DNA of 18,835 nt from a virus (Duplodnaviria > Heunggongvirae > Uroviricota > Caudoviricetes), in IMG/VR virus record IMGVR_UViG_2529292922_000019; one strand, written 5' to 3'. The notes under the pieces were generated by a model, which saw only the letters and a program-made list of their open reading frames with translations, searched no databases and had not been told where the DNA came from. Below are positions 1 to 15,491 of this stretch, one piece after another; position 1 is the stretch's first letter, and each line of letters opens with the position of its first letter. Made by a program: the position numbers and the translations under genes.

Positions 1-1131
1 TCAAATGACCAGTTTTTTCCATTCCTTACCGCGTGCGTCGTTGTAAATATCGGTCATTTTTTGATTCGAATGGCCTAGCAAAATTTTGGTATCAACCCCC
101 TGCTCTCTGAACAATCGCTCTGATAAAGATCTCTGCTCATGGAAAGAGGGAGGGGTGCCATTAGCACGCCAGTTGTAATCCACAGAATCCCGGGCTTTTT
201 TAAATGCAACGGTTAATGTTGCTGGCTTAACCATCCCGCCGCGCTTAGCTGTCCCTTTCGCGTGATGGTGGTGCAATAGCCACGGACTAAGAACGCAATC
301 GCGGCAGGATGACACCACATCATCCAGGGTGAGATTTAATTTATCGCAACGCAGAGCCAGAGGGATGGCAATCCGGGTTCCTGTTTTTTGCTGTTCGACA
401 TGAAGATAACCATCCCGGATATCCGAAAATTGCATTTTGCAAATATCTGAAAGGCGCTGGCCTGTCATCAGTGCCAGCAGCATACCGCGCTGTAAAAAGT
501 AACCATCCTTTTCCGCTGCGTTATAAATCATCATCCACTCATCAAAAGTCAGTCGCTGTCTTGATATCCGCACCTGCGGTTTTTTTGCCGATTCTGCAGG
601 GTTAAAGCCTGGCGGGACATCGCCCGTTTGCTGAGCTTCCCGGAAAACATCGATCAGTACTTTCCTGAAAATTTGTCCCATTCTGTTATGTCCTCTGGCC
701 TTGTACTCTTCCAGTACTGATACCACATCTTTTACGGTTATGGCATCTAACGGTCTGGTGCCAAAACGTTCATCAAATACCCTGAGAGGGGCCGCTTTCT
801 GTTTCAGCGTGTTGAGTTTGATCTCGCCGTTTTCATATCTTTCCTGTTGAATTTTTCTGTAATTATTCAGAAAAATGGTAACGGTTGATGAACCGCCGGT
901 ATCACTAATAATTTTCTCCTGCAGACTGAGCATTTGTTCCATTTGCTGCCGGGCAAGACGGCTGTTCGCTTCTGCTGCAATAGTTTCTGCCAGTTTCTGG
1001 TCAATACTGCCGAGACCGTGATTTTTGCCTGTTATGGGATGCCTGTAACGCCAGTAAACTTTGTTATTTCTTTTGTCAAAATACGGAGATAATCCCGGAA
1101 CATCGGTTTTATATTTTCGCGGGCGCGCCAT
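1..1131 (-). CDS. int: Lambda-family tyrosine integrase (site-specific recombinase)
   Basis: 376-aa ORF, stop codon at 1..3 on - strand. C-terminal region shows the HxxR ... LLGHS ... TDIY arrangement typical of tyrosine recombinase catalytic residues. Position next to xis at the prophage end. Confidence 0.85.
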   Translation of the reverse strand: MARPRKYKTDVPGLSPYFDKRNNKVYWRYRHPITGKNHGLGSIDQKLAETIAAEANSRLARQQMEQMLSLQEKIISDTGGSSTVTIFLNNYRKIQQERYENGEIKLNTLKQKAAPLRVFDERFGTRPLDAITVKDVVSVLEEYKARGHNRMGQIFRKVLIDVFREAQQTGDVPPGFNPAESAKKPQVRISRQRLTFDEWMMIYNAAEKDGYFLQRGMLLALMTGQRLSDICKMQFSDIRDGYLHVEQQKTGTRIAIPLALRCDKLNLTLDDVVSSCRDCVLSPWLLHHHHAKGTAKRGGMVKPATLTVAFKKARDSVDYNWRANGTPPSFHEQRSLSERLFREQGVDTKILLGHSNQKMTDIYNDARGKEWKKLVI

Positions 1132-3985: not shown

Positions 3986-4177
3986 TTAAAGACCTGCCGG
4001 GATTTCGTTATTATCCTGGTGAATAACTTTATCGACCGGGTAACAGTTACCGGGAATTTTCTGTTCGGTTGCTGCAGTCACACACTCCTGCATTGTCCTG
4101 TGAACACTGACTGCAATATCAACTGGCTCTCCGGAAACAAGAAAAACTGTCAGAACAAGTGCAAATGCTGTATTCAT
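3986..4177 (-). CDS. ydfD: YdfD-like small lysis/toxic peptide with N-terminal hydrophobic segment (63 aa)
   Basis: Internal ATG of ORF 3986..4231 gives MNTAFALVLTVFLVSGEPVD..., recalled as Qin YdfD. Start overlaps the dicB stop as ATGA (translational coupling). Alternative upstream starts exist at 4186 and 4231. Confidence 0.55.
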   Translation of the reverse strand: MNTAFALVLTVFLVSGEPVDIAVSVHRTMQECVTAATEQKIPGNCYPVDKVIHQDNNEIPAGL

Positions 4178-4362
4178 TGCCAGCATCCTTTTTGTATCGG
4201 ACGTAAACGGGCCAGCATTGAAAGAATGCATATTTTATTTAATAGCTCCCGTTCGTGTTTTCTCTTGTTAATGGCATCTTCAGTAAATACAGGGTTACTG
4301 ATAGTGACACCAATTTCAAAACAACCTTCAGACGTATTAACGTTTGGTAATAACGTTTCCAT
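4174..4362 (-). CDS. dicB: Cell division inhibitor DicB (62 aa)
   Basis: Internal Met of ORF 4174..4467 yields METLLPNVNTSEGCFEIGVTISNPVFTEDAINKRK...KGCWQ, matching remembered Qin DicB almost residue for residue. Lies directly downstream of DicF as in the dicB operon. Confidence 0.8.
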   Translation of the reverse strand: METLLPNVNTSEGCFEIGVTISNPVFTEDAINKRKHERELLNKICILSMLARLRPIQKGCWQ

Positions 4363-4533
4363 TATCGCGTCCTCAACAATGAATTTTGTGATGTGGTGCC
4401 TGGTGCCTCCAGGTGACGTTAACCAGTTAACAATTAACGCCGGATACAGAGAATCCACCCATAACACTGTTTTTGGTTTTAACTGTTCCGCGTGCGCTCA
4501 GCCGCATTCACCGCATCACAAAATTCACTTTAA

Positions 4534-4589
4534 AAACGGCGGCAGAGCAGTCACGGAGTAAAACTGATACCGCCAAACGTCACCAGAAA
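4534..4589 (-). ncRNA. dicF: DicF small regulatory RNA (ftsZ-targeting sRNA) with intrinsic terminator hairpin
   Basis: Reverse complement of 4537..4589 reads TTTCTGGTGACGTTTGGCGGTATCAGTTTTACTCCGTGACTGCTCTGCCGCC, matching the remembered 53-nt DicF sequence, followed by a T-run (A-run 4532..4536 on + strand). Located immediately upstream of dicB. Confidence 0.8.
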
Positions 4590-4920
4590 ATTGATAACAG
4601 AGGGCGTTGCAGCGGGGTTGTCGCTTAAGCGTATGGTCAACCTGACAACCCGGTGTCCTCAACGGGGAAGGAATAACCCCGCCATACTTACCGCCGCGCC
4701 ATTTCGCGGAGTGCCACAACCGGAAGCGCACGGTCGAACTAAATTTAACGACACCGTACAGAGAGACCAATTTCGCCGTGCGCTTTCGCGTTATGCCCTG
4801 ACTTTTCAGGGACATATCCTTTCAGTAAACTGTCAGTGCCGGATGTTCACCCGTGTCCGGCGCACGCACTCCACCTGACCCGTGGAGAACTCCTTAATTA
4901 CCAACCCTCAGGAGGGTGAA

Positions 4921-5178
4921 ATGGATAAAAAGCAAATTGAGGCCCTGCAATCTATTATTGAAAAACAAGATGAAGCTATCAGGATTCTTTCATATCGCAC
5001 TGATATGATACTAAATATGCTTTCTGCATTAACGGCTGCGCTTGGTGGTACAAAAACAAACGTATACCGCGAAGTTGTTATTCAACAGATAGATAAATTT
5101 GAAAAACCATACCAGGTATTAATGCTCATCTTGCAGAACAAGAGAAAGACCATGCTCTTATGGCAATTTCTTCAGTAG
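4921..5178 (+). CDS. Hypothetical small helical protein (about 85 aa), antisense to the leftward early operon
   Basis: Strong SD (AGGAGG, 5-nt spacer) before ATG at 4921. AT-rich. 3' end overlaps the convergent 133-aa gene by 21 nt. No recognisable domain. Confidence 0.4.
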   Translation: MDKKQIEALQSIIEKQDEAIRILSYRTDMILNMLSALTAALGGTKTNVYREVVIQQIDKFEKPYQVLMLILQNKRKTMLLWQFLQ

Positions 5179-5559
5179 CTCTCCCGAAAGTTGAGTAGTT
5201 TTAATTGTTGTTTTGAAATAATCACTGCTTTCACATTTGAGTGATTTCATGGCAATCCAAATGCGGGCCTCTGTGCCTGCATTTGGTTCCAGTTGCTGTA
5301 GACGTTTTGCGTCTTCCAAAAGTAAGGCGATAATGTGTTTCAGCTTCTCATCATTTGCTTGATTCTTGTTTTCAGGCGAATTCTGTCCGCCGAATAGGCG
5401 CTTCTCTTCATACAGACCTATAAAGGCACGACGCACGTTACCGGATATAGTATCGATGGTTTCTTTTTCTACGGTACTCAGGTCAAGAGTCGCCAGTTGA
5501 GAGCGAACCACATTCGATGCCATTTCCTGGAATGGTACTGGTAAATCTTTAAATTCCAT
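5158..5559 (-). CDS. Hypothetical protein (about 133 aa, alpha-helical), second gene of the repressor-proximal leftward module
   Basis: ORF 5158..5571; preferred start ATG at 5559 preceded by GAGG with 6-nt spacing. The ORF-track start at 5571 lacks an SD and overlaps the upstream stop as TGATG. AT-rich. No recognised family. Confidence 0.5.
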   Translation of the reverse strand: MEFKDLPVPFQEMASNVVRSQLATLDLSTVEKETIDTISGNVRRAFIGLYEEKRLFGGQNSPENKNQANDEKLKHIIALLLEDAKRLQQLEPNAGTEARIWIAMKSLKCESSDYFKTTIKTTQLSGELLKKLP

Positions 5560-5570
5560 CGTCAACCTCA

Positions 5571-5723
5571 TCAGTCAGTGTTTCTGGTTAACCAGCGACG
5601 CGCGCCAGCTTCAGTTTTAAACGTTTTGCTTCTGGTATACGTCATCGCGGTAAACGTGCCGTCCTGGTTGGGGAACACGCCACATACCAGAGATTCGTTG
5701 TTGCCAAGATTGAGCATATCCAT
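5571..5723 (-). CDS. ydfA: YdfA-like (DUF1391-type) small protein, about 50 aa
   Basis: Internal ATG preceded by GAGG-N5. Product MDMLNLGNNESLVCGVFPNQDGTFTAMTYTRSKTFKTEAGARRWL resembles remembered Qin YdfA. First gene downstream of the leftward operator region. A longer 77-aa form starting at 5804 is possible. Confidence 0.5.
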   Translation of the reverse strand: MDMLNLGNNESLVCGVFPNQDGTFTAMTYTRSKTFKTEAGARRWLTRNTD

Positions 5724-5904
5724 GTTGACCTCATTTCCCCTTAACGCCGGGGTAGCGGAACAAAAACCTGCTGCATAGTTATTAAAGTTGAACCCTGCCG
5801 TCATGTTCTTACGCCTCGGGCTGGCTACTTAACCCCTGACCACTGCCTGGTAACTCGAAGTATTGCCCTGCATTCTGTGGGGCGGGGTGGGTTGGTATGA
5901 AAAG

Positions 5905-5950
5905 AAGGATACCCATAGGTATTTAAAAGGTAAATACCCATGGGTAAATT
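5905..5950 (-). promoter_or_regulatory. OL-like operator pair (TACC-N4-GGTA palindromes) overlapping a putative leftward early promoter
   Basis: Palindromes ATACCCATAGGTAT (5909..5922) and TACCCATGGGTA (5935..5946, perfect). On the - strand a -35 TTTACC (5948..5943) and -10 TAAATA (5925..5920) with a 17-bp spacer overlap these sites. Confidence 0.45.
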
Positions 5951-5988
5951 TTTGCGGGGTCTTAACTGGTGACTAGTTGTTTGGTGAG

Positions 5989-6407
5989 CTATGATGCGTT
6001 TTGTGCTTTCTTTTTACGGATTTCTTCGTAGATCATATTGTAATACTGTTTTTTCTCTTCAAGAGTTTTTAATAATTTATCCGCTTCACTTTCTGGCAGT
6101 TCGTCTAAGAGATCTAAAAAAATACGTTGTCGTGGCGTTAGAACCCTTGTTTCATAACTGGAGGCTGTGTTCGTTGATGATGAAACGATACCATCCATCC
6201 ATCCCCGGGGTAACCCAAAGGACTCTTCGATAATCTCCACCATATCATCAGCGATCCGTTTTTTCCCTTTTTCCCCTCTGGGTACAACATTCTTGATACA
6301 TAAGAAGGCTCGCGCCCGATCTTTCTGGCCACGTTAACCGCTTTACCATCGCATTTCTCATCACGAATTTTGATGAGTTGCTGTCGTCTAAATTCATATT
6401 TGTCCAT
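5989..6407 (-). pseudogene. DicA/cI-like HTH repressor, reading frame interrupted by a 1-nt deletion in a homopolymer (possibly a sequencing artefact)
   Basis: Two overlapping ORFs (6138..6407 with the HTH; 5989..6243 with a DicA-like C-terminus LTPRQRIFLDLLDELPESEADKLL). One extra T in the T6 run 6259..6264 would fuse them into a single protein of about 139 aa. Confidence 0.65.
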
Positions 6408-6425
6408 AGGTAAATAATAGATGCG

Positions 6426-6478
6426 ATTACCGCAAGGTAAACAACCTGTGGGTATTGACTTTTGTTTACCTGCGGGTG
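6426..6478. promoter_or_regulatory. OR-like operator cluster: three TACC-N4-GGTA-type sites between the repressor and cro-like genes
   Basis: TTACCGCAAGGTAA (6427..6440), AACCTGTGGGTA (6443..6454) and TTACCTGCGGGTG (6464..6476). A -35-like TTGACT lies at 6455..6460. Same half-site architecture as the sites at 5909..5946. Confidence 0.45.
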
Positions 6479-8646: not shown

Positions 8647-8889
8647 GTGAATCAAAATGCCAGGTTAATGGCAACAAGATAGAACCATGTGCAGCACTGG
8701 CAAAGTCCCTTGAGCGTGATGCTGAATACACGATGCGAAAAGGTCTGCTGATATACAAAATCTGAAATGAGAGTTTAACTCGCGGTCCTGATTTTGTGAT
8801 GTTGCGTTCCGGTGAATTTTCTAAATTACCAGTTCGGGTTTCATTTTGTCCGTTCTGTGGTGAAAGTCTGAAAACGTGGGAGAACAGAA

Positions 8890-11332: not shown

Positions 11333-12001
11333 TTAAAATAACGCCAGCTTCTTTTTTATAAATTTAGCCACAAGGTATTGTTGAGGCTGTGATTCACTTC
11401 TTGGAAGGATAGATAAATCAATCGTAAGAATTAATATTTTTTCTGCAGGCATTAGCATGATGGTATTAAAGCATTGCGTGACTTGGCGTGTTTTGCATTT
11501 TATTTCTCCACCATTAGCACGTAATTCCATACCCGCATCGCTAAGATGTGTTGGGTCAAGCTCTATCACTTCAGTGTAATACGCTTTGGATAAAAAAACA
11601 GCAGTGTCAATTTGTTTATCACGAATGATATCTTGACGTAGTTCAGCAAAATGCAGCTCAGTATCAGCAACTAACAGCTCCTCTCTGGATAAAGGAATTG
11701 GGTATTTTTCTGAGAAGGGGCTATTGTCCTTTTTCTGATTTGTGAAAATTGTTTGTAATTTTGCTACGTCTTCATCGGTGATTCTATAAATAGAAAGTAA
11801 TCGATTCCCGCTAAAAATTAAACCTTTCCAGAAATCGTCGATTCTGTCTTTTAGGTCGGGATTATGCTGAACTACACTATTTACACGTTCAATAAAAAGG
11901 GGTAATCCTTGGGCCGTTACACCCAGTGATGAACCAAGAAGCTTACGGGTGTTGCGCCAGCCAAAGCGTGAATTGATGTTTTTTACTGTTTGCTCAAGCA
12001 T
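11333..12001 (-). CDS. Hypothetical protein (222 aa), first gene of the AT-rich operon; possible HEPN-like Rx6H motif
   Basis: ATG at 12001 preceded by AAGGAAG (the ORF-track GTG at 12007 is less likely). Contains ERVNSVVQH (R-x6-H). AT-rich. If the homopolymer at 11352..11357 is corrected it would extend to about 365 aa. Confidence 0.5.
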   Translation of the reverse strand: MLEQTVKNINSRFGWRNTRKLLGSSLGVTAQGLPLFIERVNSVVQHNPDLKDRIDDFWKGLIFSGNRLLSIYRITDEDVAKLQTIFTNQKKDNSPFSEKYPIPLSREELLVADTELHFAELRQDIIRDKQIDTAVFLSKAYYTEVIELDPTHLSDAGMELRANGGEIKCKTRQVTQCFNTIMLMPAEKILILTIDLSILPRSESQPQQYLVAKFIKKKLALF

Positions 12002-12347
12002 TAACACTTCCTTAATTTTCCCTTAACAATTTAGGGTGCTAAACTTTTTTGCGCAGTTTACATAAAAAAATAGTGCGTACGCAAAAACTATCTAACATGA
12101 TGAGCTTTAACCGGGAAATTTGTATATGTTGTGAGCATAAAGTTGGCTGAGAAATCTAAAACGGGTAGAATGACTGCGGGTGCTTGAGGCTATCTGTCTC
12201 AGGCATGAACACCAAAAGGCAGATAGAGAAAAGCCCCAGTTAACATTACGCGTCCGGCAAGACGCTTAACATTAATCTGAGGCCATATCTATGCTCTACA
12301 CACGTAGGTTAGCCTCTTACGTGCCGAAAGGCAAGGAGAAGCAGGCT

Positions 12348-12503
12348 ATGAAGCAGCAAAAGGCGATGTTAATCGCCCTGATCGTCATCTGTTTAACCGT
12401 CATAATGACGGCACTGGTAACGAGGAAAGACCTCTGCGAGGTACGAATCCGAACCGGCCAGACGGAGGTCGCTGTCTTCACAGCTTACGAACCTGAGGAG
12501 TAA
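12348..12503 (+). CDS. hokD: Hok/Gef-family type I toxin (51 aa), HokD/RelF-like
   Basis: MKQQKAMLIALIVICLTVIMTALVTRKDLCEVRIRTGQTEVAVFTAYEPEE, near-identical to remembered HokD. AAGGAG SD upstream. An in-frame upstream ATG at 12291 gives a 70-aa extended ORF. Confidence 0.85.
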   Translation: MKQQKAMLIALIVICLTVIMTALVTRKDLCEVRIRTGQTEVAVFTAYEPEE

Positions 12504-15251: not shown

Positions 15252-15327
15252 GGCCCTTTAGCTCAGTGGTGAGAGCGAGCGACTCATAATCGCCAGGTCG
15301 CTGGTTCAAATCCAGCAAGGGCCACCA
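15252..15327 (+). tRNA. tRNA-Ile2 (anticodon CAU, lysidine type), ileX/ileZ-like, CCA encoded
   Basis: Cloverleaf folds by hand: acceptor GGCCCTT/AAGGGCC, anticodon loop CTCATAA, T-loop TTCAAAT. Near-identical to remembered E. coli ileX. Confidence 0.85.
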
Positions 15328-15417: not shown

Positions 15418-15491
15418 GCGTTGTTAGCTCAGCAGGACAGAGCAATTGCCTTCTAAGCAATCGGTCACTGGTTCGACTCCAGTACAACGCG
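15418..15491 (+). tRNA. tRNA-Arg (anticodon UCU), argU/argN-like; no encoded CCA
   Basis: Acceptor GCGTTGT/ACAACGC, D-stem GCTC/GAGC, anticodon stem ATTGC/GCAAT with loop CTTCTAA, T-arm ACTGG-TTCGACT-CCAGT. Confidence 0.8.

Follow-up and report, generated by a model that had tools for sequence, protein, structure and literature searches.

The window analysed here is the complete 18,835-nucleotide stretch of IMG/VR record IMGVR_UViG_2529292922_000019, a member of the Caudoviricetes. Judged by its genes, it is a DicF/dicB-type lambdoid prophage, and it closely corresponds to the ompW-integrated lambdoid prophage of Escherichia coli O127:H6 E2348/69 (99.84% identity across 11.9 kb). Leftward from the repressor follow a DUF1391 gene, a 133-amino-acid (aa) open reading frame (ORF), a small gene on the plus strand, a conserved GC-rich stretch, DicF and dicB (Table 1). 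The small plus-strand gene is convergent on the early-left operon and, as the original prediction stated, antisense to the transcript of that operon, which includes DicF and dicB, both of them downstream on the minus strand. This gene, the structured leader in front of it and the swappable slot it occupies are the subject of this study.

The convergent gene pair and its leader

As it reads in the window, the plus-strand ORF spans 4921-5178, encodes 85 aa and starts 5 nt behind a strong Shine-Dalgarno (SD) sequence (AGGAGG, 4910-4915). The original prediction had reported this ORF, its good initiation site and a 21-nt overlap with the 133-aa ORF. ORF, SD sequence and overlap are present, but the 3' end is due to a frameshift: the intact gene of 92 aa ends at window position 5198, inside the convergent ORF, and the overlap becomes 41 nt. 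Outside the overlap, the ratio of nonsynonymous to synonymous substitution rates (dN/dS) relative to the Salmonella homologue is 0.23. Because homologues of both this gene and the core segment of the opposite ORF (see below) are under purifying selection, both exceed what chance would produce, and the plus-strand ORF is a real gene. An exhaustive HMMER profile search of 1.84 billion representatives retrieved only 13 relatives of its product, four of which (90-93 aa, 33-44% identity) keep the length and the motifs of the family, namely R.D..LN.LSAL..ALGG, EK.H and, at the C-terminus, SVALP; a scan of genome contigs with the protein alignment found no relatives. Another cassette type contributes a distant relative of 91 aa (Smith-Waterman z about 10). 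Distant homologues likewise sit at the left edge of an immunity region and are convergent on leftward genes; their partner is cI itself or a gene of the cox operon, which is overlapped by 41 nt as well. One of them (locus L111) is preceded by an extended -10-like leader, and a terminator-like hairpin is present there too. The protein is predicted to be soluble and mildly acidic, and transmembrane segments are absent. An AlphaFold2 (AF2) model of the 92-aa form, with a mean predicted local distance difference test score (pLDDT) of 68.6, predicts three helices (3-41, 46-63 and 69-85), and Foldseek searches of this low-confidence model against PDB and BFVD returned only generic helical bundles with E > 0.1.

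The convergent minus-strand ORF (5158-5559, 133 aa) is, by comparison with its homologues, an in-frame chimera of a 53-aa N-terminal module (N-module), a core of about 40 aa and an unconstrained tail. Homologues of the N-module share about 85% identity over residues 1-53 and then continue into unrelated C-terminal halves of differing length, and the PHROG matches are split likewise (phrog_1363 for the 133-aa ORF, phrog_30817 for the core). In prophages of Salmonella enterica the C-terminal half is a separate 71-aa gene, the first to the left of the repressor, which is convergent with a 93-aa homologue of the plus-strand gene and also overlaps it by 41 nt. A search with the Salmonella 71-aa protein yielded about 100 small proteins (40-122 aa). 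Elsewhere in Enterobacterales prophages the core forms an early protein of its own, 44-122 aa long. It is conserved across about ten genera; those represented include Escherichia, Salmonella, Citrobacter, Enterobacter, Hafnia, Cronobacter, Sodalis, Mixta and Erwinia, to which a genome scan added Raoultella, Lelliottia and Edwardsiella. The first 40 residues of this family are nearly invariant (M.E.ELKHVIALLLEDAKRLQQxEPNAGTEARIW) and are followed by unrelated tails. Between E. coli and Salmonella, the core differs at few nonsynonymous sites (pN 0.12) and its synonymous sites are saturated (pS 0.84); it is therefore conserved at the protein level. The N-module is under moderate constraint (dN/dS 0.39-0.59). 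For the tail, dN/dS is 1.07, obtained from E. coli and Salmonella for the aligned segment past the first 40 columns, which begins a few residues upstream of the tail proper. Since the shortest family members hardly exceed the core, we interpret the tails as translation that runs on into whatever lies downstream. An AF2 model of the 133-aa ORF, of low confidence (pLDDT 60.9) and too poor for a fold search, shows two helices in the N-module, two in the core (66-90 and 94-107) and a disordered tail (pLDDT < 50 for residues 109-128). A supposed identity of the core with Rac YdaG turned out to be wrong on comparison with K-12 Rac, and none of the records checked gives the core protein a name or a functional annotation.

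E. coli and Salmonella share the leader upstream of the plus-strand gene, and it is also conserved in K-12 Qin, where it stands beside ydfC and no plus-strand gene follows. Conservation ends, and variable sequence begins, just ahead of the SD sequence. In an alignment of 63 leaders, of which 62 are distinct, 93.6% of the cells of the distinct sequences pair. Hairpins 1 and 3 carry compensatory changes, such as CTCCAC/GTGGAG versus CCCAAC/GTTGGG in locus L110, and the covariation score lies above all 500 shuffles and all slid controls. Folding gave z scores of -3.8 for the plus and -1.6 for the minus strand, and several pairs are U-G on the plus strand and would be A-C mismatches on the minus strand; both observations favour a plus-strand RNA. 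The candidate -10 element, TAAACT, is nearly invariant among the 63 leaders; the Salmonella form (TGaTAAGCT) and that of locus L123 (TGgTAAACT) are both extended -10-like. Hairpin 2 (GCCGGATG...TGTCCGGC) starts like the E. coli repetitive extragenic palindromic (REP) consensus (GCCGGATGCGGCG...), a resemblance that is possibly a coincidence.

Table 1. Features of the early-left region, in window coordinates
Feature	Position	Strand	Description
dicB	4174-4362	-	downstream of the small ORFs on the minus strand
DicF	4537-4588	-	Rfam, 72.5 bits
Structured leader	4795-4920	+	three hairpins, candidate promoter and SD sequence; upstream of the plus-strand gene
Hairpin 1	4796-4811	+	CCCTGA/TCAGGG
Candidate -35	4803-4808	+	TTTTCA; 17 nt from the -10
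Candidate -10	4826-4831	+	TAAACT; best-conserved unpaired element
Hairpin 2	4838-4861	+	GCCGGATG/TGTCCGGC
Hairpin 3	4869-4887	+	CTCCAC/GTGGAG
Cargo gene, intact extent	4921-5198	+	92 aa, phrog_18692; here disrupted by a -1 frameshift
A5 homopolymer	5102-5106	+	A6 in E2348/69; frameshift site in the cargo gene
Tail of the 133-aa ORF	5158-5238	-	residues ~108-133 and stop; antisense through the 3' end of the cargo gene
Core of the 133-aa ORF	5239-5361	-	residues ~67-107 (...LKHIIALLLEDAKRLQQLEPNAGTEARIWIA...); homologues in Enterobacterales prophages, selection, predicted helices
N-module of the 133-aa ORF	5401-5559	-	residues 1-53 (MEFKDLP...); alignment, split PHROG matches, PPompW variant
DUF1391 (YdfA/YdaF family) protein gene	5571-5723	-	50 aa; Pfam PF07151, RefSeq annotation
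Left operator/early-left promoter region (probable)	5900-5946	-	16-bp inverted repeat TACCCATAGGTATTTA / TAAATACCCATGGGTA
Repressor	5989-6407	-	139 aa in E2348/69

Swappable cassettes and related loci

Among IMG/VR loci that carry the N-module, the cassettes sort into several types. Type A (48 loci) combines the 133-aa ORF with the 92-aa partner, type B an ORF of 106-109 aa with a 91-aa partner, and type C one of 124 aa with a 73-aa partner; in a deletion form (31 loci) the partner is absent. PPompW phages add a type D, in which an ORF of 135 aa has a 77-aa partner. The partners of all types use the same ATG and the same SD sequence. A search with the central hairpin retrieved 170 leader instances. 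Half of them (85) are followed by an SD-bearing plus-strand ORF that begins 55-61 nt downstream, and in the remaining 85 the leader either adjoins ydfC, as in K-12, or borders a deletion. These cargo ORFs represent at least five mutually unrelated families, namely the 92/93/91-aa family and those of 77, 73, 96 and 69 aa. A complete type-A module is present in 88 of 5426 complete E. coli genomes and part of the 1.1-kb query matches 4398 of them; the sequences flanking the slot match in about 80%. In collinear phages the slot is polymorphic by presence, absence or replacement of its content, as is characteristic of morons, and its base composition also deviates from the flanks (GC content 0.375-0.415 at 4900-5400 versus 0.53-0.575 at 4500-4900).

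This deviation is confined to about 4900-5400. The original prediction had taken the interval for one AT-rich module that comprises a YdfA-like peptide and the 133-aa ORF. Both minus-strand ORFs were found, with 11 nt between the stop of the first and the ATG of the second at 5559, and the first matches PF07151 (97 bits versus a cut-off of 27.3, E 4.7e-28, residues 30-75 of a 77-aa ORF). The DUF1391 assignment thus holds, but the length of 77 aa does not: neither Rac nor locus L090 conserves the N-terminal extension to 5804, and the conserved protein has 50 aa. Low GC content likewise applies only to part of the interval, the DUF1391 gene having 0.48-0.52. Instead of a single module, the interval contains a conserved core gene of the prophage (DUF1391), a chimeric ORF with an unconstrained tail and a separate, swappable plus-strand cassette. 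That the genes are repressor-proximal, belong to the early-left operon and lack a recognizable function was confirmed: the 133-aa, 92-aa, 71-aa and other cargo proteins had no significant match in Pfam, NCBIfam, PADLOC or the PDB sequences, and the profile searches that had been suggested gave no informative match for the minus- and plus-strand proteins beyond DUF1391. phrog_18692, whose profile covers only residues 1-68 of the 85-aa product, phrog_1363 and phrog_30817 are significant full-length or domain matches, and membership in them says nothing about function because these families lack functional annotation. Literature searches on the accession numbers, on DUF1391 and on ydfC with antisense returned nothing specific.

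The arrangement recurs in kilR/rdgC-type prophages of E. coli, Salmonella, Cronobacter and Hafnia, in which the core gene is followed by a convergent, 3'-overlapping small gene (the phrog_8894 family of 95-112 aa, and a 59-aa protein). Ahead of these genes lies a second class of leader, made up of a CCAC..GGTGG hairpin, an extended -10-like TGGTAT(A/G/C)CT, an ACTGG..CCAGT hairpin and an SD sequence; it was seen at L090 (about 4030-4095), L092, L094, L101 and L111 (about 240-306), and its second hairpin shows a compensatory change in L111 (CTTGG/CCAAG). A viral contig, L206, has two copies of the leader hairpin, at 83-242 (plus strand) and 8709-8868 (minus strand), with different cargo ORFs (of 69 and 96 aa). 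Of these copies the second is situated in the rightward portion of that genome, again convergent on a neighbouring ORF; judged from this contig, the leader may not be restricted to the early-left arm. In a Salmonella relative (L086, 5011-6413), a two-gene insert encoding a 310-aa protein and a 157-aa DUF6932 protein separates the repressor from the core gene and is another variable accessory site beside the immunity region.

Among known systems, the dicBF operon of Qin (in K-12: dicA, ydfA, ydfB, ydfC, dicF, dicB, ydfD) has the same operon logic and flanks. In Qin and in the window alike, the repressor is followed by DUF1391 as the first gene, by small ORFs, by a long stretch that is untranslated and includes DicF, and then by dicB and ydfD/DUF1482; they also share the leader, which in Qin lies beside ydfC. 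However, Qin has ydfB and ydfC in place of the 133-aa chimeric ORF and lacks the plus-strand gene, and the repressor of the window is of another type, accompanied by YdaS/YdaT-like rightward genes as in Rac. In K-12 Rac, sieB occupies the equivalent position: on the opposite strand, left of the repressor and convergent, with a 3' overlap, on the DUF1391 gene ydaF. SieB, which is also found in lambda and P22, is a prophage-expressed superinfection-exclusion (abortive-infection) protein. The equivalent position and orientation of sieB, together with the polymorphism of the slot, strengthen the earlier suggestion that the region is a site for cargo or exclusion genes. The proteins themselves are dissimilar: no sequence similarity to SieB was found, and a Pfam scan of the plus-strand protein returned nothing significant. 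Rac SieB has 162 aa, is basic and contains a strongly hydrophobic segment (maximal 19-residue hydropathy 2.19), whereas the soluble, mildly acidic 92-aa protein reaches 0.93 and has no membrane segment of the SieB type. In K-12 Rac (L089, 4906-5003) an annotated small RNA, KilS, lies upstream of kilR. Its relative position, with the division inhibitor on one side and the convergent sieB slot on the other, is that of DicF with respect to dicB.

With lambdoid morons and the hotspots of P2 and P4 (PMC9122126) the slot shares presence/absence and replacement polymorphism between conserved flanks, a deviant base composition and an orientation independent of the surrounding operon. It differs from them in that unrelated cargos begin at one fixed distance behind one leader and SD sequence instead of having their own promoters, in that the cassette ends inside a neighbouring ORF and provides that ORF with a variable junk tail, and in that no terminator was seen. 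The arrangement corresponds to no known system, yet it is of a known kind, that of prophage accessory-gene hotspots, with an unusual shared structured leader.

Integrity of the window and prophage context

A base-by-base comparison with E2348/69 over about 12 kb revealed 16 substitutions and three 1-base deletions, all of the latter in homopolymers. One is the frameshift in the cargo gene. The second, in a T run at 6259-6264, splits the 139-aa repressor into ORFs of 84 and 89 aa; a third was observed near 11351. That all three indels fall in homopolymers (A5, T6 and a T run) suggests read errors, and the frameshift in the plus-strand gene is probably a sequencing error or, otherwise, a recent inactivation. 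Alternatively, the gene and the repressor might be true pseudogenes of a decaying prophage, which would leave the module without a present function in this genome. We consider this possible but on balance doubtful. The accumulation of three -1 indels within 12 kb would agree with decay, as would a different truncation of the plus-strand gene (27 aa) in four of the 48 type-A copies in IMG/VR and the deposition of the 85-aa form as a protein of strain DEC2C (the product is identical to WP_000358770.1/ECDEC2C_1411). The remainder of the 12 kb, however, shows only the 16 substitutions, and one of the indels would split the very repressor that silences a toxic operon. Induction of the dicBF operon is highly toxic (PMC5069750), and a truly dead repressor is therefore unlikely. 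Contig counts found the 85-aa form on three contigs, DEC2C included, and two exact variants of the 92-aa form on at least 1000 contigs each.

The layout of the window is, from its gene order, that of the dicBF-operon type of K-12 Qin joined to a Rac-like immunity region. A DUF1482/YdfD-like gene, an exonuclease and then the excisionase and integrase lie to the left of dicB, and YdaS-like and YdaT-like genes to the right of the repressor. The repressor gene lies between operator-like repeats (ATACCCAT(A/G)GGTA), found at 5900-5946 and, as related half-sites beside the repressor start, at 6404-6471. They probably mark the early-left and early-right promoters. The DUF1391 gene is the first of the early-left operon. 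The terminator scan wrongly scored the 16-bp inverted repeat, at 5910-5946, as a hairpin. Within 4400-6000, Rfam searches at a permissive threshold found only DicF. In a more rightward part of the prophage, a hok/sok-type locus with a full-length sok antitoxin RNA (117 bits) was detected at 12178-12353 (plus strand), as were two tRNA genes at 15252-15324 and 15418-15491 (plus strand).

Expression, alternative readings and significance

Taken together, we consider it reasonably probable that the region is a moron-type hotspot for accessory genes that is convergent on the early-left operon. According to the mechanism proposed here, the repressor-controlled early-left promoter would drive the 50-aa DUF1391 protein and then the 133-aa fusion ORF; these small proteins would be made only after derepression, alongside DicF and DicB, as lytic-phase proteins. 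The leader is probably transcribed in the plus direction, perhaps from a weak promoter with its -10 at 4826-4831, and would supply whichever cargo ORF occupies the slot, here that of the 92-aa protein, with a strong ribosome-binding site. Expression of the cargo would then be independent of the early-left operon and convergent to it, would most likely take place in the lysogen and would be silenced by collision and RNase III once the operon fires. Its role would most likely be a benefit to the lysogen, such as superinfection exclusion or defence, as is suggested only by its position, the polymorphism of the slot and the analogy to sieB. More specifically, the leader might be a dedicated expression platform active in lysogens, behind which the five or more unrelated cargo families, and others behind the second, related class of leader in kilR-type prophages, are exchanged. 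DicF/Rac-type lambdoid prophages would then contain a hotspot for exclusion or defence that has so far escaped recognition, and the 92-aa protein would be a new single-gene exclusion factor, an extension that we regard as speculative and rather unlikely in this complete form.

Indirect evidence on transcription of the leader comes from strand-specific RNA-seq of K-12 (PMC7373196, Tables S1b-c). For ydfC of Qin, 3.1 sense and 7.2 antisense reads per million (RPM) were reported, compared with 5.3 and 0.34 for ydfB, 6.6 and 0.08 for dicF and 3.3 and 0.08 for dicB; the antisense reads of ydfC exceed those of the other three genes at least 20-fold, and double-stranded RNA (dsRNA) captured with p19 is enriched at ydfC (PMC7373196). 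Coordinates of a dsRNA cluster near ydfC were looked for and none were found. The K-12 reads fit a transcript that starts in the ydfC-dicF spacer, the site of the leader, and reads in the direction of the plus-strand gene.

Several points weigh against a lysogen-expressed accessory hotspot. The K-12 counts are low and come from a different cassette state, and the published table has at least one inconsistent strand label (dicA). A promoter scan of the plus strand returned nothing at threshold, and the candidate TTTTCA-17-TAAACT, which agrees with the consensus at 8 of 12 positions, is weak and was not reported by the scan; between 4100 and 6600 no terminator-like site was found on the plus strand. 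The covariation of the leader was drawn from closely related sequences, and hairpin 2 is uninformative in this respect because it was fixed by the search pattern. Moreover, the leader is equally conserved where no plus-strand ORF follows (85 of the 170 instances, and K-12), and it may instead serve the minus-strand transcript, as part of the DicF precursor, or an antisense RNA. Finally, none of the cargo proteins could be matched to a known family of defence or exclusion proteins: the best PADLOC-DB 2.0 matches are partial and have E values of 0.014-0.04, and in PHROGs the cargo and minus-strand proteins fall only into families without functional annotation.

The main rival explanation is that the principal product of the rightward unit is an antisense RNA, which by collision and RNase III would damp leaky transcription of the toxic DicF/dicB operon, the ORFs being secondary passengers. 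The persistence of the leader in half of the instances, K-12 Qin included, with no ORF behind it would be in line with this explanation, as would the restriction of the K-12 antisense reads and p19-captured dsRNA to ydfC, the toxicity of the induced operon and the 41-nt 3' overlap common to E. coli and Salmonella. However, purifying selection acts on the protein encoded by the plus-strand ORF, distant homologues of equal length exist, and a strong SD sequence stands at a fixed distance in front of all cargo types; the antisense explanation accounts for the persistence of the leader but not for the selection on the cargo protein. Furthermore, Salmonella prophages carry the same gene pair with no dicB gene called (DicF was not searched there), and pairing with DicF or dicB themselves is impossible for an RNA whose start lies downstream of the small ORFs. 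An antisense RNA as the main product thus appears unlikely.

Far less probable still is that the plus-strand protein and the C-terminal part of the minus-strand protein form a cognate pair, similar to toxin and antitoxin or to effector and immunity protein, whose expression is coupled by the overlap. Immunity genes of pore-forming colicins have a comparable convergent arrangement, the variable C-terminal half of the minus-strand ORF is exchanged together with the plus-strand gene between conserved flanks, and the same pair with the same overlap exists in Salmonella. Yet the partners are swapped in types B and C and at loci L110, L111 and L090-L094. The 91-aa homologue of the plus-strand protein (B91) is paired with a minus-strand protein devoid of the core, the convergent partner of other homologues is a cox-operon gene or cI, and genes that contain the core are followed by unrelated convergent genes or by none. 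The part of the minus-strand ORF that covaries with the cargo is the tail, which is unconstrained by its dN/dS, and toxin-antitoxin families gave no match beyond E 0.013. A toxin/immunity-type pair was rejected on the grounds that partners swap and the tail is neutral. The weakest alternative, according to which the minus-strand genes are core phage regulators such as a lambda N-like antiterminator and the region is ordinary regulatory machinery, has in its favour the position directly downstream of the early-left promoter and the very strong conservation of the core across genera, as for a core function, but was rejected as scarcely credible: neither protein matches N or any other regulator in Pfam or NCBIfam, their N-termini (MDMLNLGNNE and MEFKDLPVPF) are not basic and by eye contain no arginine-rich motif, the core segment is rich in acidic residues, the pI is 6.6 (charge was computed for the whole 133-aa ORF only), boxA sites with at most one mismatch occur at chance level (15 matches versus 10.5 expected) and not at all between promoter and first gene (5724-5990; a boxB-type hairpin was not specifically searched), and K-12 Qin and Rac, which follow the same operon logic, lack the core gene. 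The identification as an N-like antiterminator that had been named as a potential objection to the original prediction thus did not materialize.

Returning to the accessory hotspot, our results have consequences for the annotation of these prophages. The 85-aa ORF and the split-repressor ORFs of this sequence should not be trusted as they stand, and the lengths given in annotations for small ORFs next to the cassette (variants of 106-166 aa) are artefacts, produced by read-through into it. The core of about 40 aa is a separate, widely conserved early phage function that merits testing. Most E. coli genomes contain remnants of DicF/dicB- and Rac-type prophages, whose small early-left genes are uncharacterised. 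If the slot is a hotspot expressed in lysogens, it would provide a short and well-delimited list of candidate exclusion or defence genes, together with a portable leader whose hairpins can be tested.

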